Origin: Desulfosudaceae bacterium
Lineage (GTDB): Bacteria; Desulfobacterota; Desulfobacteria; Desulfobacterales; Desulfosudaceae
DNA length: 64,000 bases
Assembly: GCA_963674745.2 (NCBI GenBank)
Contig: CAXXDV010000001.1
Location: 1,760,001 to 1,824,000, forward strand
Reading direction: 5' to 3'
Shown piece after piece: positions 40,641-50,548 of the stretch. The number at the start of each line of letters is the position of its first letter. Position 1 is the stretch's first letter. The notes under the pieces are model-generated. The model was given only the letters and a program-made list of their open reading frames with translations. It had not been told where the DNA came from and did no database searches. Both the position numbers and the translations under genes were made by a program.

Positions 40641-41996
40641 TTAAAGCAGGTCGGAGGCAATCTCGGCTAAAAGGGACCGTTCACCTTTTTCCATGGTTAT
40701 ATGGGCATAGATTTCCTGCCCCTTCATTTTGTCTATCAGGTAGGTCAGGCCGTTACTGCGCGAATCCAGGTAGGGCGTGTCGATCTGGTAAGGATCACCG
40801 GTGAAGACAACCTTGGTGCCTTGACCGGCGCGGGTGATAATGGTTTTGACTTCATGGGGCGTCAGGTTCTGGGCTTCGTCGACAATAAAGTATACCCAGG
40901 GCAGGCTGCGACCCCTGATGTAGGCCAGGGCTGTTATGAGCAGCTTGCGTTTGCTGATCATGTCGTTGATTCGCTGATATTCCGAGGAAGTTTCGGAAAA
41001 CTGATTTTGAATGACGGACAGATTGTCGAACAACGGCTGCATATAGGGGTCCAGTTTGTCTTCAATATCACCCGGCAGGTAGCCGATGTCGCGATTCGAC
41101 AGCGGGATGACCGGGCGAGCCAGAAATATCTGCTTGTAATCCTTTCGCACCTGGAGCGCCCCTGCCAACGCCATCAACGTTTTGCCGGTGCCGGCCTTTC
41201 CGGAAAGGGTGACCAGTAAAATGCGGGGATCCATCAGTGCCTGCAGGGCGAAAATCTGTTCGGCATTGCGGGGTGTAATCCCATAGGCCCGTTTTTTTTC
41301 CACCAGATTCAGGGTCGCCTCTTCTTTGATGCAGGTGGTCAGTATGCTCTGGCTGTCATTCCGGAGAATAAAATTTTCATTGGGGAACGGGTCGAGTTCC
41401 AGGCCGGTTTCGCTGATCGGTACAAAACCGTTTTTAAATATCCGGTCGATGGCATCATGATTAACACCTTCGATCAGGTTTTTGCCGCTGTATAGATCGT
41501 CAATGTTTTTTATTTTACCGGTTTCATAATCCTCGGCCTGGATGGCAATGCTTTTGGCCTTCATGCGAAGGTTGATATCTTTTGATACCAGGACAACCCG
41601 CTCATAGCCGTGATCGTATGCCAGTTTATAGGTAATGGATAAAATGCGATGGTCCGGTTTGTCCTCCCAAAAGTACTCTTTGAAATGCTCGTCCTTTTTC
41701 TGGCTTGTTTTGACGACGACACATCCGCCGGATTCCAATTCGACACCTTCATTCAGCAGGCGTTCACCGATGAGTGTATCCAGCTCCCGTGTAAATTCCC
41801 GGGCATTGAAGTTAATGGTTTCGTGTCCCCGTTTGAAATGATCGATTTCCTCCAGCAGGGTTATGGGCAGAACCACATTCTGGTCTTTAAAAGAGTAAAT
41901 CGCGAGGAAGTCATAAAGAACCACGCTGGTATCAAGGACAAAAATTTTTTTCTGGTTAGAGCTGAGTAATGATTGATTTGGCAATCCTTTAGTCAT
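40641..41996 (-). CDS. PhoH-family ATPase with N-terminal PIN domain
   Basis: VLDTSV PIN start, SKDINLRMKA, GKAGTGKT, GYLPG, IRGRS, DEAQN, GDPYQID. Confidence 0.93.
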   Translation of the reverse strand: MTKGLPNQSLLSSNQKKIFVLDTSVVLYDFLAIYSFKDQNVVLPITLLEEIDHFKRGHETINFNAREFTRELDTLIGERLLNEGVELESGGCVVVKTSQKKDEHFKEYFWEDKPDHRILSITYKLAYDHGYERVVLVSKDINLRMKAKSIAIQAEDYETGKIKNIDDLYSGKNLIEGVNHDAIDRIFKNGFVPISETGLELDPFPNENFILRNDSQSILTTCIKEEATLNLVEKKRAYGITPRNAEQIFALQALMDPRILLVTLSGKAGTGKTLMALAGALQVRKDYKQIFLARPVIPLSNRDIGYLPGDIEDKLDPYMQPLFDNLSVIQNQFSETSSEYQRINDMISKRKLLITALAYIRGRSLPWVYFIVDEAQNLTPHEVKTIITRAGQGTKVVFTGDPYQIDTPYLDSRSNGLTYLIDKMKGQEIYAHITMEKGERSLLAEIASDLL

Positions 41997-42653: not shown

Positions 42654-43058
42654 TCAGGGCCGGGACAGAAATTTAAGTGTCAGGCCGAGCACCATCACCA
42701 TCAGGCCGATATAGAACCACTTGATGTCTTCCAGGCCGGCAAACATCAGCCCGAGGCCGATAAGGCCGACAATCCAGGCATTGACCGCCAGAACACCCGA
42801 TATGCCCTCCGTGCCGGATGCCGGGGCTGCCGGTTGTTGAGAAGATGACGGGGGCCCGATGATCCTGGCGGCCCGTTCCAGTTCCGAGGCCAGTACTTTC
42901 AATATTACGCCCTGGGTCAGTCTTAACTGGGGATACATGCCGCCGCAATCATCCTTGACGATAAGCGCCTCGATGCCTTCTGACAGCAGCCGTCCCCTGA
43001 CGATTTCGGCTTCGATCTCGGTCGTAAAGGATTGAAACGTTACAAATCGGTCTTCCAT
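42654..43058 (-). CDS. DUF2007-like domain membrane protein
   Basis: EAEIVRGRLLSEGIEALI...GVILKV...ERAARII followed by two TM helices. Confidence 0.75.
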   Translation of the reverse strand: MEDRFVTFQSFTTEIEAEIVRGRLLSEGIEALIVKDDCGGMYPQLRLTQGVILKVLASELERAARIIGPPSSSQQPAAPASGTEGISGVLAVNAWIVGLIGLGLMFAGLEDIKWFYIGLMVMVLGLTLKFLSRP

Positions 43059-43190
43059 GAATCACCTTTGTGAAAAGTAGACTTTAACAAGGCATAATAA
43101 AAAATTTTAGCACAGATGCTCAGGGGTGTCGACAGGTTCGGTGCAAAACCGTCTTTCCAAAAAAGGTTCAGGCTTTCTGACCGGATATGG

Positions 43191-43227
43191 AAAAAGTAAA
43201 GCCCGCTTTAGTAAAAGCGGGCTTTAC
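43191..43227 (-). terminator. Strong intrinsic terminator closing the candidate ncRNA
   Basis: Minus strand GTAAAGCCCGCTTT-TACT-AAAGCGGGCTTTAC-TTTTT. Confidence 0.8.
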
Positions 43228-43535
43228 GCGTCGGGTCTTCCATGACCCTTATACATTCCCATCGTGGAAACGCCGCACATGAGAATAGCGGTTAAATAAA
43301 GATGGCCGTGTAACCCCTTTGCGGGTGATGTCCGGCGGAACCGCTTAAGAAGGACAGCCCTTTCGGGGTAATATTGAACCGTTACCAATTCAGGGCGGAT
43401 CAGGGAAAATCCGCCCCGGTTTACATAAGGGGTGGAAGGAGCGATTGCCTGCCGCCATCACCTTGATCGGGATTACACGCCATCGATAATAAAAACAGCG
43501 ATAGAAATTTTTCTTGACTGACGTATTTTTATTTT
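43191..43535 (-). ncRNA. Candidate structured non-coding RNA of unknown family
   Basis: Nested helices across 43301-43484, G-U pairs favouring the minus strand, GAAA tetraloop, TTGACA at 43580-43575, terminator, no long ORF. Confidence 0.6.
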
Positions 43536-43716
43536 ACCGCCATTTTTAATGAGATAATCACTGATAAAACATAATGTCAAGCGAAATGATGTCTAAAAAA
43601 GATTAATATTTATACCTGTTTCGAAAGGGCGCAAGGGGGGTATTCGGCGGTGAATGCTGACAGATCCGTGCTTTTGTGTACTTTTGTGTCGGATGAGGGC
43701 GTCTGTGCAGACTGTC

Positions 43717-44475
43717 TTACTTCTTTTTCAGGCCGGCCAGTAGATCCTTGACCCGCTGGCGGTTATCCGGTGCGCCGATATATGAGCGGAACAGCCATTC
43801 CTGGGTCTTCATGGCGCCATCTAAGTCTTTGTCCACCAGCAGATGGGTCAGTTGCTTGGTCTCGGCCAGGCATTGAGGATCATATCCGGCCATGGTTCTG
43901 GCAATCGGCAGGACAGATTGCAGCAGTTCGCCTTTGGGAAACACCCGGCTGACATATCCCATCCGTTCGGCTTCTGCGGCATCGTAAATGCGGCCGGTGA
44001 AAGCAACTTCTTTGGCGCGTCCCAGGCCGATGATCCGCCACAGGGGATCCATGATGGGGGGCAGGGACAGTGGCATTTCACGTTGCCCGAATTTGGCGTT
44101 TTCGGATGCGTACCGGATATCACACATCATGGTCAGATCGAATCCGCCGGCAATGGCCGGGCCGCCGACAGCCGCAATCACGGGCCTTCGGCAAAACAGA
44201 ATGGATCGATAAGCGCCATGAAAAAGAGCAATAAAGTCTTCGTTGGCGTTTTTTTCCATCTGTCCAACGACATCAAGATCAAACCCGGCGGAAAACATTT
44301 TTTCTCCACCGGTCAGTATCACCACATTCACGTCGGGTGTGTTGTTCAATTTTGTAAACAGCGCTTCTATTTCTGCCAGCACGTCAGGGGACAGAGCGTT
44401 TCCCTTTTCCGGGCGACTGATGGTGACCACCGCCACTTTTTCGTTCGTCTGTATTTTCAGGTACGTAAATTCCAT
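43717..44475 (-). CDS. Enoyl-CoA hydratase/isomerase family protein
   Basis: ISRPEKGNAL, FSAGFDL, PVIAAVGGPAIAGG, CDIR; start placed at ATG 44475 (GAGGA RBS). Confidence 0.9.
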   Translation of the reverse strand: MEFTYLKIQTNEKVAVVTISRPEKGNALSPDVLAEIEALFTKLNNTPDVNVVILTGGEKMFSAGFDLDVVGQMEKNANEDFIALFHGAYRSILFCRRPVIAAVGGPAIAGGFDLTMMCDIRYASENAKFGQREMPLSLPPIMDPLWRIIGLGRAKEVAFTGRIYDAAEAERMGYVSRVFPKGELLQSVLPIARTMAGYDPQCLAETKQLTHLLVDKDLDGAMKTQEWLFRSYIGAPDNRQRVKDLLAGLKKK

Positions 44476-44525
44476 CGTCCTCACCTGTTTTTTAAAGTCG
44501 TTTACAAAAGAGCTGCTGCCGCCTG

Positions 44526-44960
44526 TCAGGAATGCAACTTTGTGCTTCGCACCAGGGTCGGCGCTAACAGCAGCATTGCCACCGAGGTGGGCGGACCATT
44601 GATGAAAAAAACCGTCAGGGAAAATGCGTATGCCACCGAAGAGGTCCTGTTTATCGACAGAGACGCTTTTGCCATCGGGTTGATGATGTAAAAAAGCAGA
44701 TCCGCGATTGTCAGCAGGATCAGTCCCCAGGCTGCCCATTTTTTCATATCCCAGGCGCCGATGCCGCAGATCACAAGGGGCAACATGAATAGCAGGTACT
44801 TGTACCCCATCAGTGCCAGTTGATGCTCGGGCAGGCTGGTCGGTTCCGATCCCAGCCAGACAAAGGCCTTTAATACAGCCAGCCAGCCAATGGCCCAGAC
44901 CGGCCATGGATAATCCGTGTGCAGGCGCTGAGACATTATCCGTTGTGATTTATTTTTCAT
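44526..44960 (-). CDS. Hypothetical membrane protein (about 4 TM)
   Basis: 144 aa hydrophobic ORF from ATG 44960 behind AGGAG. Confidence 0.65.
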   Translation of the reverse strand: MKNKSQRIMSQRLHTDYPWPVWAIGWLAVLKAFVWLGSEPTSLPEHQLALMGYKYLLFMLPLVICGIGAWDMKKWAAWGLILLTIADLLFYIINPMAKASLSINRTSSVAYAFSLTVFFINGPPTSVAMLLLAPTLVRSTKLHS

Positions 44961-45108: not shown

Positions 45109-46038
45109 TTATCCGGACCATGGTTGTCCCAGTGCCGCCGGCATACCCTCGATGTTGTGGTCACGCCCGGCGGACAAATTTAAAATCAGCAAGGTCAGAA
45201 TCATCAGCGGAAAGGGCGCCGCCTGAAAAACCTGACCGGGTATCGACGGTAAAAGCTGTTGCAGATATATGCCGCCAACCTGGAGAAATGCGAAAAAGTA
45301 AGCCCCCAGCGTCGCGCGAACAATGCCCCAGCGGCCGAATATGACCAGTGCCAGGACAATCCAGCCCACGCCTTCGGCACCCTGCGGATGTCCCCAGCCG
45401 GCTTTAATGCTTAATGAATAAGCCCCCCCGGCCAGGCCTGTCAAAAGACCGCCGCATATAGCGCATATCAGTCGGGTTGCAGCCGGATTAACGCCCCTTG
45501 CAAATGCGGCTTCCGGACGTTCACCCGATGCCCGAATATTCAATCCGAGCGGGGTTTTATTGATGAGCCACCAGGCAACCGGGATCAGCAAAAAAATTAA
45601 ATAGACAAGCATGTTATGGTCGAACAGAATATGGCCGATCAGGGGAATCTCGGACAACCAGGGAATCGGTTGATGGGGTACCCGGGGGCCGCCCAGCCCG
45701 GAAAAGGATGAACCGAGAAAATAGGCGATATCTCTCGTCATCAAAGCCAGTACAAACCCGGCCGCTATTTGAGATACCCGCAGGTAAAGCGAAAAGACCG
45801 CCACTATACCGGAAATTATGGCACCAATGATCGCGCCGATGATAAAGCCGGCCAACAGGGATTCGGTATTTACGGCGACGGCAAAAGCACCCATGGCGCT
45901 GAGCAGGATGGCCCCGTCCAGGGACAGGTTAATTACCCCTGATTTTTCTGACAGTGTTTCACCGATAACGGCCAGAACAACGGGTGTGGCGGTAAAAACA
46001 ACGGTGGAAAGCAGTATGGAAATGGTCAGGTCGTCCAT
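45109..46038 (-). CDS. ABC transporter permease (nucleoside/sugar CUT2-like)
   Basis: GETLSEKSGVINLSLDG, GLNIRASGERPEAA, MPAALGQP. Confidence 0.9.
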   Translation of the reverse strand: MDDLTISILLSTVVFTATPVVLAVIGETLSEKSGVINLSLDGAILLSAMGAFAVAVNTESLLAGFIIGAIIGAIISGIVAVFSLYLRVSQIAAGFVLALMTRDIAYFLGSSFSGLGGPRVPHQPIPWLSEIPLIGHILFDHNMLVYLIFLLIPVAWWLINKTPLGLNIRASGERPEAAFARGVNPAATRLICAICGGLLTGLAGGAYSLSIKAGWGHPQGAEGVGWIVLALVIFGRWGIVRATLGAYFFAFLQVGGIYLQQLLPSIPGQVFQAAPFPLMILTLLILNLSAGRDHNIEGMPAALGQPWSG

Positions 46039-47078
46039 CAGGCGCTCCCGTCCGGGCGGCTTTGTCCCCGGCTGTAAATCGCCAGAGCAGAAAGCACCAG
46101 TGCGCCCTGAAGCACACCGCTCAAAGATGAGTCCAGATGCAGCATAAGTGGAAGCTGAATGCTGCCGACATTCAGTGCCGCAAAGAAAAAAGCGATCAGC
46201 GCCGCCGCACCGATATGTCTGTTGGCCAGCATCACTACCAGCAGCGCAAGATATCCGTAATTTCCGGAAATAGACGGGATAAGGCAGTGATAGACACCGG
46301 TCACCTGGACGGCACCTGCCAGTCCGGCACAGCCGCCCGAAACAGCCATGGCCAGAAGTATCTGGCGGGCCGGTCTCAAGCCCATCAGGAAGGCGGCCCG
46401 GGGGTTACTGCTGACAGTTTTCAGGTACAGCCCCATGTTGGTCCGGGCTAAAAGTAAGGCGGTTACGGTAAAAAGGGCGACCGTAAGACCAATGCCCACC
46501 GGTGATATCCGGCCGTTTATTAGGGTCGGCAGCCAGAGATCGGCGGGAAACAAGGCCGTCCCGCTCATGGAAGCAATACCGGGGCGTTTCCAGGGACCGA
46601 AGATCAACCACAGAACAGTTCCCTGGGCGACGAAATTAAGCCCCAGGCCGCCGAAGATTTCATTGACACCGCCTTTTGTTTTCAAAATCCCGGCCAGCAG
46701 CGCCCACAACCCCCCACCGAAAGCCGCGGCCAAAAAAGCCAGCGTGAGGAGTGTGGCCGGCATTTCCATAACCGACCCCCAACGAATGATCGCCGTGCAG
46801 CAAAGGGCCCCCCAGATCATCTGCCCTTCTACACCGATATTGAGCAGGCCGCACCGAAACGAATAAATCAATCCGCAGGCGCAAATTGCCAGCGGTATCC
46901 AGGCCTGGACAACATAAGCGATCTTGCTGGCCGATCCCAGGGCGCCTTTGAGCATGTATCCGAATGCCACCAGGGGTGATACCCCGGCAATCAAGAGCAG
47001 TATCGCTCCGACCAGAAAAGCCGTACCGCCGATCAGCCCCATTCGGCCGATTGTTTTACGCGTTGATTTTAAGTTCAT
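46038..47078 (-). CDS. ABC transporter permease (nucleoside/sugar CUT2-like)
   Basis: LLNIGVEGQ, GVNEIFGGL, AGLAGA; multi-TM. The start could be 47117. Confidence 0.88.
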   Translation of the reverse strand: MNLKSTRKTIGRMGLIGGTAFLVGAILLLIAGVSPLVAFGYMLKGALGSASKIAYVVQAWIPLAICACGLIYSFRCGLLNIGVEGQMIWGALCCTAIIRWGSVMEMPATLLTLAFLAAAFGGGLWALLAGILKTKGGVNEIFGGLGLNFVAQGTVLWLIFGPWKRPGIASMSGTALFPADLWLPTLINGRISPVGIGLTVALFTVTALLLARTNMGLYLKTVSSNPRAAFLMGLRPARQILLAMAVSGGCAGLAGAVQVTGVYHCLIPSISGNYGYLALLVVMLANRHIGAAALIAFFFAALNVGSIQLPLMLHLDSSLSGVLQGALVLSALAIYSRGQSRPDGSA

Positions 47079-47097
47079 GGTATGATGAAAAAAATGT

Positions 47098-48579
47098 TCA
47101 TAATCCCCCGCCGGCATGCTGCTTGCCCGTGATGGCTTTTTCCAGGGCCGCTATGGTGGCTTTGCTGACGGATAAATCCGTAACCAGACGGCCGTTATAG
47201 AACACGGCCACCCGGTCGGACATGGACAGCAGTTCATCCAGGTCGGAAGACGAAAACACCACCGCGCCGCCTTTATCACAGAAGGCCTGCAAGCGTGACC
47301 AGAGAAGTGCGGCGGATTCCGGGTCAAGCCCCCTGGTCGGTTTGTCCAGAAAGAGAAGATCGGCTGTTTCCGGTATCAGCGCCAGAAGAAGGCGTTGTTG
47401 ATTGCCTCCTGAAAGGGACCGAACCGGCGTGTCCGGCCGGCATTTTATTTGAAAGCGCGAAATAGCCGCATCTGCCCGTGCCCGTGCCTTATGCGATCGC
47501 ATTTCCCATACGGCCGCGTTTTCTGCTACCAGGAAATGGTCGGCCACCGTCAGGTCCGGCGCCAGGCCTTCGTTGAGGCGGTCAGCGGGAATGTAGCCGA
47601 TGCCTTTTTGTTTTAAAGCGTGATATCCGGCACCGGTGATATCTTCTCCACGCAGTGTCAGTTTTCCTGACACAAGCGGGGTCAGGCCGACGGCGGTTCT
47701 AAGGAAAAGTTCCTGCCCGCTGCCTTCCATCCCGGCCAGACCGACGGTTTCGCCCCGGCGGACAGAAAAATTGCAGCCATGAAGGCCGGCCCTTCCCCCC
47801 GCGGCCGTGATGCCGGTCGATGTGAAAACAACCTCACCGGTTTCTGTCGATAGACGCTCATGATGGGTAAAACGCGGGCCGAACATTAACGTCAGGATCT
47901 GATCGACATCAAAAGGCGGGGTCAGCGAACCGCTGATATGTCCTTTGCGCAATATCGTCATATGGTCGCACAACTGTTGAATGTCGGAAATTTTGTGGGA
48001 TACCAGGACAACGCTGTTGCCCTCTCGGGCGGCAAACCGGCGAAGAGACTTAAAAAGGACGGATTTCTGCTTTTCGGAAAGACCGGTGGTGGGTTCGTCC
48101 AATATCAGCAGGCGTGTCCCGGCCGACAACAGGCGGATAATATCCAGCTGCTGTCTTGCCCCGGGGGGCATGGCGGCGGCAGGCTCCTCCGGGTGTATGA
48201 AGAACCCCATGTCATCGGCCAGTTGCCGGAACTTTTGCGTAAAAGCCGCCCTGCTAGACCGCAATCCGCGGGCCTGTCCCAGCATGAAGTTCTCAAGCGC
48301 GGAAAAAATCGGGACATCCATGGTGTCCTGCTGCAGCATGCCGATCCCCCGGGCAGACGCCTCACGGGGGGATGAAAAGGCGATGGCTTCATCATTGATA
48401 AAAATGTCGCCCCCGTCTTTTTTAAGATACCCGGACAGGATGCGCATCAGGGTTGTCTTGCCGGCCCCGTTCTCACCCACCAGACCGTGGATGCTGTTGG
48501 GCTCAATGGCCAGAGAAATGCCGCTGTTGGCCTGGATATGCCCGAAATATTTACTGATGTCTCGAAGTTCAACTCTCAT
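47098..48579 (-). CDS. ABC transporter ATP-binding protein (two-domain)
   Basis: GENGAGKTT, LILDEPT, LSGGNQQ, SSDLDE. Confidence 0.92.
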   Translation of the reverse strand: MRVELRDISKYFGHIQANSGISLAIEPNSIHGLVGENGAGKTTLMRILSGYLKKDGGDIFINDEAIAFSSPREASARGIGMLQQDTMDVPIFSALENFMLGQARGLRSSRAAFTQKFRQLADDMGFFIHPEEPAAAMPPGARQQLDIIRLLSAGTRLLILDEPTTGLSEKQKSVLFKSLRRFAAREGNSVVLVSHKISDIQQLCDHMTILRKGHISGSLTPPFDVDQILTLMFGPRFTHHERLSTETGEVVFTSTGITAAGGRAGLHGCNFSVRRGETVGLAGMEGSGQELFLRTAVGLTPLVSGKLTLRGEDITGAGYHALKQKGIGYIPADRLNEGLAPDLTVADHFLVAENAAVWEMRSHKARARADAAISRFQIKCRPDTPVRSLSGGNQQRLLLALIPETADLLFLDKPTRGLDPESAALLWSRLQAFCDKGGAVVFSSSDLDELLSMSDRVAVFYNGRLVTDLSVSKATIAALEKAITGKQHAGGGL

Positions 48580-48639
48580 CAAATTTTCGGCGGTTGTTGT
48601 CGGACTGGCAATCCGTCCAGGCCGGAAGATTATGGATGA

Positions 48640-49830
48640 TTATTCTCCTCCGGCACCCGACATGCCTTTGAGCAGTTTTTTGACGTACCACATCTGGCGG
48701 TCAGTAGCGACTTGCCCGTCCTTGAGGAAGACGGATCCATCCTGGTAAGACAGCGGCCCTTTGAACAGCACGATCTGATGATTCGCCAGCCCGGTGATAA
48801 ACTTATCAAGGGCGGTTTTGACGTCAGGCGACATGGCCGGTCCGGGCCTGAAACCAATGGCGCCGCTGTCCGGATTGTTCATATCTTTCCAGTCCGGCAG
48901 AGACCAGATAAAACGGCTCTCCCACTGTCCGGCCATGGACTGTTTGACGAGTTTCAGGTAGTCCGGTCCCCAGTTGAAATAAGGCACGCCCAGACAGACA
49001 TCAGGACCGGTCTGGCAGGCGTTGACATATTCATACGGCATGGCCCATACGGTTTTACCCTGGTCCTTTTTCTGTCTGGCCACGGTTACCGCCTCTGTGG
49101 TATCCAGCCCTGAAACAATAACATCAGATCCGGTATCATAAAAATTTCCGGCCACCGCCGTCGGGTCGGCCGTGACGCCGGGGATATGAAACCAGAAACC
49201 GATCCAGGAGACACGAAAATGAAGTTGATCAAGCGGCTTTTTTAATACCGTGCGCCAGGCGTATCTTGCTCCCAGGTAACAGGCCACCGCCAGGCGTCTG
49301 GTCTCCTCGTTTTCCAGCGGCCCCAGGTAACCGATTTTGCCCGTTTGTGTCGTCAAGGCGGCTGAAAATCCGGCCATCATCTTGCCATATATCATTTTCC
49401 CCATCAGATTGGTCAGGTTGGGCGGGGCTTTCCCGGTCCAGACGTCATCACCGGAAACATGGATGAAATGAACCTTCGGATGGGCCAGGGCCGCCTGCCT
49501 GACACCGTCTTTCATGTCATCGGAAGTCGCCATAACCAGCCCGGCGCCCTTTTCCACCAGGTCATCCACCAGCTGGGGCACGGTCATCCCGGGTCGATCA
49601 GCCGGATTGACCTTGTCGATATAAATCATTCTGGTGCCGGGCATTTTTTCTTCCACGTATTTACCGGCTTCGTAATGGGACTGACTCCAACCATGATCAT
49701 TGTAGGGGCCGACCAAAAGCATGCCGAAAACAAACGGATTGTCCGCGGCAGAAGCCATGGCCGGAAAGAAAAAAGCGGCCAGGAACAATAAGGCGGAAAG
49801 AAGGGTTGCCCATGCGCGAGGTTTCACCAT
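48640..49830 (-). CDS. BMP-family ABC substrate-binding protein
   Basis: Signal peptide, VGPYNDHGWSQSHYEA, GKIGYLG, FNWGP; ATG 49830 behind AAGGAGG. Confidence 0.9.
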   Translation of the reverse strand: MVKPRAWATLLSALLFLAAFFFPAMASAADNPFVFGMLLVGPYNDHGWSQSHYEAGKYVEEKMPGTRMIYIDKVNPADRPGMTVPQLVDDLVEKGAGLVMATSDDMKDGVRQAALAHPKVHFIHVSGDDVWTGKAPPNLTNLMGKMIYGKMMAGFSAALTTQTGKIGYLGPLENEETRRLAVACYLGARYAWRTVLKKPLDQLHFRVSWIGFWFHIPGVTADPTAVAGNFYDTGSDVIVSGLDTTEAVTVARQKKDQGKTVWAMPYEYVNACQTGPDVCLGVPYFNWGPDYLKLVKQSMAGQWESRFIWSLPDWKDMNNPDSGAIGFRPGPAMSPDVKTALDKFITGLANHQIVLFKGPLSYQDGSVFLKDGQVATDRQMWYVKKLLKGMSGAGGE

Positions 49831-49840
49831 CGACCTCCTT

Positions 49841-50548
49841 TTATGCGTTTGAATCCAATTGCAGTTTTCTGGGTTCATGCCCCGAAGCGGCGATATAGTA
49901 TTCTTGTTTGTCTTTATAGATTATCATGCCGTCAAGATAGTCCACGTTTTCGCGTTTTTCCGAGGGCACTTTCAAAAAATACCATTGTAATACGTACACG
50001 TTCCAGTCGTGGGTGACGCAGATATCCAGGTGGTTCGAACAATCGTTTTCCGCAAAACGTTTTTCCCAGAACGCCTTCATGGTGGTAGCGACTTTTTCAG
50101 GCGGGTCGATGACGTCTGCGGGTACAGAACCATTGAACCAGGCGGGCAGAAAATCCGATCCCTTGAGATGCTCCTCAAACAAGCGCAGGGCATCTTTGAC
50201 ATAAAAAGGAGACAGGGTCAACTCGATGGCGTTGTGGCTGGTTGTGCCACTTGAAGCCACATAGCCTTTGTCCATCAGGTAGGCGGTCTCGATGCACCGG
50301 CCGATAAAGCTTGAAAAAAAATTGAGGTGCCGGCCCGGCGGCAGGCTTTTTCCCCATTCAAAAGACAACTCTTTGCCTTCTTCGGTCAACCCCATGAAGG
50401 GTTCGTTGATGGGGTTGTCCGTGTCATAATGCCGGGCGGAGTGGCGCAACACAATCACCCCCCGCCTTGTATCGCCATGTAAAAAGGTTTCTACCAGTTG
50501 CCGTGTTTTGGTGCCATAATCTGTCGATGGGGGTTGTGCTTTTTTCAT
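49841..50548 (-). CDS. Histidine phosphatase superfamily protein
   Basis: VLRHS (RHG variant), LTEEG, SS...RCIETA, VTHD. Confidence 0.8.
   Translation of the reverse strand: MKKAQPPSTDYGTKTRQLVETFLHGDTRRGVIVLRHSARHYDTDNPINEPFMGLTEEGKELSFEWGKSLPPGRHLNFFSSFIGRCIETAYLMDKGYVASSGTTSHNAIELTLSPFYVKDALRLFEEHLKGSDFLPAWFNGSVPADVIDPPEKVATTMKAFWEKRFAENDCSNHLDICVTHDWNVYVLQWYFLKVPSEKRENVDYLDGMIIYKDKQEYYIAASGHEPRKLQLDSNA

Follow-up and report, generated by a model that had tools for sequence, protein, structure and literature searches.

On the minus strand of a 64,000-nucleotide stretch of contig CAXXDV010000001.1 from a Desulfosudaceae bacterium (the window), the gap between an enoyl-CoA hydratase gene and a DUF2007-like gene contains a genuine, strongly folded, structured RNA element at approximately 43545-43191. 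The element represents a genuine, new and narrowly distributed family of small RNAs (sRNAs), approximately 290-355 nt long, which is absent from Rfam. Among 13 genomes sampled from the taxonomic family, the RNA coincides exactly with the presence of CsrA and the absence of FliW and flagellin. Here we describe the gene structure, conservation and structural covariation of this RNA and the pattern of its co-occurrence with CsrA. We tentatively propose, at somewhat less than even confidence, that it is a new stand-alone regulatory sRNA which binds CsrA and possibly also acts by base-pairing through a C-rich motif. CsrA binding, and the direction of its effect, we infer.

The source genome (G000) is 5.55 Mb in length and 99.96% complete. 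Together with G001 and G002 it makes up genus g1; the other genomes in the family sample are three of genus g4 (G005, G008 and G011), two of genus g5, and five of genera g2, g3 and g6. The gap that holds the RNA is 658 bp long, and the longest open reading frame (ORF) inside it is no more than 54 aa. The minimum free energy (MFE) predicted for the minus strand is -152.1 kcal/mol, compared with -110.9 +/- 6.3 kcal/mol for 100 dinucleotide shuffles (z -6.54), none of which folded as well. The fold of the plus strand is weaker (MFE -144.5, z -5.26). The choice of the minus strand is also supported by a covariance model of the central domain, built from the three g1 sequences and designated R1, which scores far higher on the sense strand of these congeners (179-205 bits) than on the antisense strand (24-27 bits). 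These values bear out an earlier sequence-only reading of this DNA, made by a model without database searches, which had proposed a structured minus-strand RNA; the helices, the two TCCTTC copies, the hairpin GGGTC-ATGGAA-GACCC (43248-43233) and the TTGACA (43580-43575) that it listed are all present. No small ORF in the element is conserved between the genera, and we conclude that the RNA is not protein-coding because its homologues have no ORF in common. Its predicted length is approximately 355 nt in g1 (G000) and 290 nt in g4.

At its upstream end the element carries a promoter on the minus strand (43552-43585) that consists of the sequence TTTCGC-TTGACA-TT, a 17-nt spacer ending in TGA, and the -10 hexamer TTATCT. 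The -35 TTGACA lies at 43580-43575, the TG at 43560-43559 and the -10 at 43557-43552. The box is identical in five of the six homologues described below and has a single change in G002. The sequence-only reading had called the -10 weak, which is true of the hexamer itself, yet a TG (extended -10) stands two bases ahead of it in all six. Directly upstream of the -35 box is an A/T-rich stretch (43586-43620, minus strand), matched by A/T-rich runs in 6/6 homologues, that may be an UP element. These features argue for a genuine and probably strong promoter of the extended -10, sigma-70 type, and transcription would start near 43545. At the other end, a scan of 42900-43900 returned exactly one intrinsic terminator, the one that the sequence-only reading had pointed out; it is on the minus strand (43191-43227) and has a 14-bp stem with a 4-nt loop (43227-43196, 14 pairs) followed by TTTTT. 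The plus strand has no T-run at this site, which makes the terminator one-way. Its stem is completely paired in all six homologues, and four of its pairs are changed on both sides between the genera.

Between promoter and terminator the minus-strand RNA falls into a 5' segment, a central domain and a 3' module. The 5' segment (43491-43545) is A/U-rich, contains a small hairpin in the MFE fold and is partly conserved among the three congeners; in the MFE fold of G000 it lengthens the rod by pairing with 43300-43285. The 184-nt central domain (43301-43484) is closed by helix P1, in which GATGGCGTGTAATCCC (43484-43469) pairs with GGGGTTACACGGCCATC (43317-43301), and contains helix P2 and hairpin P3 (43418-43391), which are conserved in g1. 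Its inner helices are GGTGATG/CATCACC and CGGGGCGGAT/ATCCGCCCTG, and the two TCCTTC copies lie within 43443-43427 and 43353-43345. P1 is 16-17 bp long in g1, and in g4 the central domain is a hairpin with a closing helix of approximately 16-17 bp. Beyond P1, P2 and P3, the sequence of the interior and even the number of hairpins vary among the three g1 species. The CCC-GAAA-GGG tetraloop hairpin and the GGTAA/TTACC helix of the sequence-only reading are a case in point: both can be drawn in the G000 sequence, but neither is in the three-congener consensus.

The only interior sequence kept across both genera is C-rich motif 1, CGCTCCTTCCACCCCTT (43427-43443, minus strand), for which the cross-genus alignment gives the core UUC(C)ACCCC. 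It takes the form CGCUCCUUCCACCCC in G000 and G001 and GCGCCUUCACCCC...CUCCCCCU in g4. Its predicted probability of being unpaired is 0.61-1.0 in the six RNAs, compared with whole-RNA means of 0.32-0.38, and in G002 and g4 it occupies the apical loop of a long hairpin. A second, C/U-rich motif, TCCTTCTTA (43345-43353, minus strand), is found throughout g1 as TCCYYCTTA and is unpaired in the g1 consensus structure. The 3' module consists of two adjacent short hairpins and the terminator. In G000, hairpin H1 (43254-43272, minus strand) has a 7-bp stem and the loop ACGAT; H2 (43233-43248, minus strand) is GGGTC-ATGGAA-GACCC with the core TCATGGAAGA. Pseudoknots between the C-rich motifs and the GGA loops were also considered; 5-7 bp can be drawn in each species, at differing sites, and there is no consistent pairing.

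When 41 related genomes were searched by BLASTN, only the congeners G001 and G002 had the element; G016 gave a match of 36 nt (E 0.0065), which is chance. The three g1 sequences have in common the promoter region, P1, P2, P3 and the entire 3' part, and a search of the 13 family genomes with R1 gave matches in these three genomes only. In G002 the element spans overlapping contig ends, the start of C8 and the end of C9, which overlap by approximately 160 identical bases; the assembly break inside it is an artefact. Orthologues of the hydratase are present in 11 of the 13 genomes, and the DNA downstream was read for ten of them. By this use of synteny a clearly homologous element was located downstream of the hydratase in all three g4 genomes. 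It has the same TTTCGC-TTGACA-TT box and a spacer of 17 nt whose last bases are TGn; its long central hairpin has an apical loop rich in C, and its 3' part contains two GGA hairpins and a related terminator. In G003, G007, G009 and G010 no such element was seen after the hydratase, and in G004 the contig ends 516 nt after the hydratase. Homologues are present in 6/13 genomes (g1 3/3, g4 3/3), and in each carrier the element lies directly downstream of the hydratase on the same strand, at a variable distance from the hydratase stop. The features conserved across the two genera are the putative promoter, the C-rich motif that is predicted to be unpaired, and the predicted 3' module of two GGA hairpins and a terminator.

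A second covariance model, R2, was built from the 3' modules of all six homologues. It scores 72.6-95.1 bits on these six and no more than 30 bits on all else in the family, and in an even sample of 151 genomes at the level of the order, as in a class-level sample of 151 genomes, high scores were obtained only in G000 and G002. Weak R2 matches of 21-36 bits (in 56 order-sample and three class-sample genomes; <=30 bits in the family) proved, in the 28+9+2 inspected, to be generic terminators that lack the promoter box. Scanning public genomes with a 17-base degenerate P1 pattern returned 118 stretches, none of them element-like by BLASTN (E<=1e-3), and these were set aside as chance. Metagenome contigs gave no match to a 27-base P1 pattern and five matches to an H2-plus-terminator pattern, which reached only 10.2-12.4 bits with R2 and were likewise ascribed to chance. 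Within the collections searched, the RNA family comprises six species in two genera and is lineage-restricted. The promoter box has two extra occurrences, and neither has a similar RNA behind it. G007 has one of them within a coding region; the other (13 bases; G000:C1:1724427-1724439, plus strand) is outside the window, upstream of an ORF with a signal-peptide-like N-terminus, and could be either chance (approximately 0.3 expected) or a shared regulatory site.

Base changes in the homologues preserve the predicted pairing. Two neighbouring pairs of P1 show compensatory changes within g1: one goes from A-U to U-A, the other from A-U to U-G. When 39 pairs of the g1 central domain were defined by hand, 88.8% of cells were paired and five pairs were changed on both sides, two of them in P1; when the 3' partners were slid by 1-3 columns as a control, only 32-51% were paired. 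For the 24 pairs of the 3' module in six sequences the corresponding values are 90.3% paired cells and seven pairs changed on both sides, with 39-55% in the slid controls. The covariation score of the 3' module was 0.331 against 0.202 +/- 0.032 for shuffles, and none of 500 shuffles scored as high. These figures for the 3' module come from only six related sequences and are supportive rather than proof.

The observation of the sequence-only reading that one 3' hairpin has a CsrA-like AUGGA loop turned out to be its most useful lead. H2 reads GGUCA-N-GGA-N-GAC in all six homologues, and its variation is confined to the two N positions of (A/U)CANGGANG(U/A), the RsmE/CsrA consensus of Schubert et al. 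2007 as quoted in PMC6849547. The six loops are AUGGAA, AGGGAU, AGGGAG, AGGGAG, AGGGAA and AGGGAA, and that of G000 has a predicted unpaired probability of 1.0. H1 fits CAGGANG or CANGGANG in five of the six homologues (CAGGAUG, CAGGAGG, CACGGAAG, and CAGGGAAG twice); the repeat of CsrB is CAGGA(U/A/C)G, and CsrA ligands obtained by SELEX have mostly six-base loops and stems of <=4 bp (PMC7652899). Where both hairpins carry GGA, the spacing from GGA to GGA is 19-24 nt; a CsrA dimer can bridge 10-63 nt, with an optimum of >18 (PMC7652899). Hairpins with a 4-bp stem and an ANGGAN loop number 207 on both strands of the 5.55-Mb G000 genome, which gives an expectation of approximately 0.0065 per 350 nt. 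No denser cluster of CsrA-type motifs was found outside ORFs in G000; the maximum, four per 250 nt, is reached at five loci, all of them in open frames of 304-882 aa.

The distribution of the RNA in the 13 family genomes follows that of CsrA without its flagellar partners. In g1 the RNA and CsrA are present in 3/3 genomes and FliW and flagellin in 0/3, and the same counts apply to the three genomes of g4. Both g5 genomes have CsrA, FliW and flagellin and lack the RNA, and all four are missing from the five genomes of g2, g3 and g6. The RNA therefore occurs exactly where CsrA is found without a known antagonist. In g5 the gene order around csrA is the classical flgK-flgL-csrA-fliW-flagellin. 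For g1 and g4, three genomes were examined (G000, G002 and G008), and in these csrA is flanked by a molybdopterin oxidoreductase gene on one side and a radical-SAM gene on the other. CsrA is 63-70 aa long with D or G at position 55 in g1 and g4, and approximately 84 aa with N55 in g5; binding of FliW requires N55 and a C-terminal extension of CsrA (PMC13407953). G000 has two intact csrA copies, one of 64 aa on the 131.6-kb contig C2 (G000:C2:55832-55987) and one of 61 aa on C3 (G000:C3:11135-11284). A third CsrA-like stretch (G000:C1:1211468-1211593) has two TAA stops and is a probable pseudogene. The oxidoreductase adjoining csrA in G000 is formate-dehydrogenase-like and occupies two adjacent frames of 377 and 539 aa (G000:C2:52935-55700), which may form a single gene in which an in-frame TGA encodes selenocysteine; the 539-aa part also adjoins csrA in G002 and G008. 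Hfq was searched for in G000 and was not found.

Control of CsrA by sponge sRNAs is described principally in Gammaproteobacteria, and control by FliW in flagellated bacteria of other groups (PMC13407953, PMC7652899). Within this framework we suggest that the RNA is a trans-acting sRNA, transcribed from a sigma-70-type promoter of its own and ending at the intrinsic terminator. CsrA would bind the conserved 3' module, in which two adjacent short hairpins present GGA in their loops, and, given the spacing, one dimer could bridge the GGAs of H1 and H2. In this way the RNA may titrate or recruit CsrA where CsrA has been kept and FliW and the flagellum are absent. The long central helix would display the unpaired C-rich motif as a second site, which may pair with G-rich ribosome-binding regions. 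A more far-reaching scenario, and a doubtful one, is that this lineage lost the flagellum, flagellin and FliW, moved csrA into a metabolic neighbourhood, and replaced the ancestral FliW-flagellin partner switch by a dedicated, highly expressed sRNA whose two hairpins clamp one CsrA dimer, with the C-rich loop perhaps exposed or hidden by CsrA; this would be an independently evolved antagonist outside the Gammaproteobacteria.

A number of observations weigh against CsrA binding. H1 of G000 itself is CACGAUG, with a loop that lacks GGA. Each RNA has only two candidate sites, and CsrB has approximately 18 or more, with a repeat count similar to the number of bound CsrA subunits (PMC7652899). Counted over the whole RNA, GGA shows no enrichment: composition predicts 4.0-6.6 and 4-8 are seen. 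The H2 stem of g4 has just 3 bp, CAGGGA is paired in the consensus fold with a UCYCUG that lies upstream, and the predicted unpaired probability of the H2 loop is 0.20-0.42; pairing of the GGA lowers CsrA affinity (PMC7652899). None of the Rfam models for Csr/Rsm RNAs (CsrB, CsrC, RsmX, RsmY and RsmZ) matched at gathering score or at E<=10. If the RNA were purely a sponge, approximately 250 nt of structured 5' and central domain, including the C-rich motif, would have no role. The common csrA context of g1 and g4 suggests a single ancestor, so that the co-occurrence counts as roughly one evolutionary event out of three or four, and not as six independent events. Completeness is only 71-87% in four of the six carriers, and the absence of FliW is firm only for G000 (99.96%) and G002 (99%). 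We nevertheless favour a CsrA-binding, possibly dual-function sRNA because McaS and GadY, base-pairing sRNAs of E. coli with as few as two GGA motifs, bind CsrA with high affinity (PMC7652899) and give a precedent for two sites.

The RNA could instead act by base-pairing only, with the C-rich motif (UUC(C)ACCCC and CUCC-type runs) as a seed for G-rich ribosome-binding sites and the GGA hairpins as structural or stabilising elements. The cross-genus conservation of this motif, the only such sequence in the interior, its largely unpaired state (0.61-1.0, predicted) and its position in an apical loop in G002 and g4 all speak for such a role, and the failure to find Hfq in G000 is in line with the C-rich-seed sRNAs of Hfq-independent organisms. 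The invariant core, however, is only approximately 5-8 nt, and a search of the source genome for complementarity gave a single extended match (19/20 nt, E 0.31) in the middle of a 576-aa ORF, which is probably chance. Base-pairing would also leave unexplained both the invariance of H2 around two variable N positions and the co-occurrence with FliW-less CsrA, and we consider it unlikely to be the whole function. A different possibility concerns the origin of the RNA: it could be a 3'-untranslated element of the hydratase operon, released by read-through and processing, that stabilises or terminates the operon mRNA and has no action in trans. In all six genomes the element indeed follows the hydratase directly and on its strand, and no terminator was detected by the scan in the interval that separates it from the hydratase stop. 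Data from RNA libraries also bear on this question. Four libraries from three sediment studies each contain one or two contigs of 151-201 nt that jointly cover 43252-43579, three of them 96-98% identical and two (X4) 93-96% identical; since the runs were selected for holding the stretch and RNA libraries can carry DNA contamination, these contigs do no more than hint at an RNA that is produced in amounts sufficient for assembly. In the same four runs the flanking DUF2007 gene and most of the hydratase gene have no cover, which carries no weight as evidence in runs selected in this way. A contig of 151 nt, 93% identical, extends to 43579 and so beyond the predicted start on the upstream side, which counts against our preferred reading as well; it may stem from hydratase read-through or from DNA in that library. 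The conservation of the -35 box, TGn and A/T-rich upstream stretch in 6/6 homologues at a variable distance from the hydratase argues against a 3'-untranslated element, as do the hydratase orthologues in four other family genomes that lack the element, and a terminator needs no sequence-specific conservation of H2. We regard this origin as distinctly improbable.

The sequence-only reading had offered two more specific identities, an attenuating leader of the DUF2007 gene and an atypical 6S-like RNA, and neither has stood up. In favour of a transcription-attenuating leader or riboswitch is the same-strand DUF2007-like gene that follows the terminator in G000 and G001, whose DUF2007-like proteins share 57% identity. 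The gene downstream is a different one in g4, and in G002 what comes after the terminator is the end of a convergent groEL with the terminator of groEL itself, and no co-directional gene. In G000 there is also a promoter-like site (43132-43104: TCGACA, a 17-nt spacer with TG, TAAAAT) between the terminator and the start of the DUF2007-like gene. Because the downstream genes differ, G002 has none and the DUF2007-like gene has a promoter-like site of its own, we conclude that the RNA is not a leader, and a role of this kind is very improbable. Nor was a conserved ligand-binding core, such as marks a riboswitch, found in the element: the closing helix and the flanks are conserved and the interior varies even within g1. 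A second 6S-like RNA that binds RNA polymerase was suggested by the 184-nt domain and its long closing helix. The canonical 6S RNA of G000, however, is elsewhere (G000:C1:1982781-1982963, 89.7 bits), the interior of the domain is branched and variable and lacks a conserved central bubble, and the g4 version has a different architecture, which makes this identity more improbable still. Rfam 15 gave no gathering-level hit in the entire 64-kb window; over 43000-43800 there were 15 sub-threshold matches at E<=10, the best of which (26.7 bits against a cut-off of 55) falls mainly on the terminator hairpin, and neither 6S (RF00013) nor any Csr/Rsm family is among the 15 listed. RNase P RNA (303.1 bits), transfer-messenger RNA (195 bits) and signal recognition particle RNA (57.9 bits) were located elsewhere in G000; the sequence-only reading had seen no hallmarks of these RNAs in the element. 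Least probable of all is a miniature inverted-repeat transposable element (MITE), another selfish repeat or a decaying functionless remnant. A long inverted repeat does close the domain, but G000, which is 99.96% complete, has only one full-length copy of the element (the 28 other BLAST matches do not exceed 41 bits), and its syntenic position is the same in all six species of the two genera, in which compensatory changes are also seen. What has held of the sequence-only reading is its broader proposal of a stand-alone non-coding RNA with its own terminator, which is supported by the conserved promoter, one-way terminator, single copy, lack of an Rfam hit, compensatory changes and differing downstream genes.

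The genes around the RNA are on the same strand. The hydratase gene, which flanks it upstream, is an open frame at 43717-44907 (minus strand; ECH_1 8.5e-49). This frame of 396 aa is probably over-long; orthologues of 253-254 aa align to 43720-44475, and the true start is probably near 44478. Upstream of the hydratase, at 45109-49878 (minus strand), is an ABC transporter set with a Bmp/PnrA-like binding protein, a double ATPase and two BPD_transp_2 permeases, and the set and the hydratase probably form one operon. Downstream of the RNA, the DUF2007-like gene (42654-43058, minus strand) encodes a protein that scores 22.8 bits, below the Pfam cut-off of 25.7. Its hydrophobic C-terminal segment, which is kept in the G001 protein (57% identity overall), suggests a membrane anchor. 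Two genes downstream of the RNA is a PIN-PhoH fusion protein of the PhoH2 type (40641-41996, minus strand; PIN_4 3.1e-30, PhoH 2.8e-45).

No account of an sRNA that binds CsrA in Desulfobacterota or Deltaproteobacteria came up in a search of full-text literature, whose coverage did not extend to subscription-only papers. A 2026 Geobacter paper states that no CsrA-binding sRNA has been characterised there and that antagonism by sRNAs is principally a feature of Gammaproteobacteria (PMC13407953). The RNA described here is of a kind already known, a regulatory sRNA running from promoter to terminator, and the point of interest is its possible tie to FliW-less CsrA. The locus offers a concrete candidate for the control of CsrA in a lineage that has CsrA and lacks FliW and flagellin, and in which Hfq was not found in G000. 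Even if the link to CsrA fails, a structured sRNA family remains that is well defined by promoter, terminator, synteny and covariation.

Among known systems, 6S RNA resembles the element in having a closed domain of similar size with a long closing helix, and differs from it in that the 6S model finds no match here, the interior of the domain is branched and variable, and a canonical 6S RNA is present elsewhere in G000. RsaE and RoxS of Firmicutes are C-rich-seed sRNAs whose unpaired C-rich motifs can pair with G-rich ribosome-binding sites. They are comparable in the unpaired C-rich motif and in that Hfq was not found in G000, but there is no homology and the RNA described here is much longer. 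CsrB/CsrC and RsmX/RsmY/RsmZ are likewise stand-alone, terminator-ended RNAs with GGA-bearing loops on short hairpins that match CAGGA(U/A/C)G or (A/U)CANGGANG(U/A), and the host genomes here have CsrA and lack FliW. In contrast to these RNAs, the present one belongs to another bacterial lineage, has two candidate sites rather than many, no Rfam Csr/Rsm match and a large structured 5' domain with a C-rich motif, and its binding of CsrA is predicted. McaS and GadY are several times shorter than this RNA, are not homologous to it and work with Hfq, which was not found in G000. Like it, they combine few GGA sites with a separate region, here a candidate one, for base-pairing, and they provide the closest functional analogy for two sites being sufficient.

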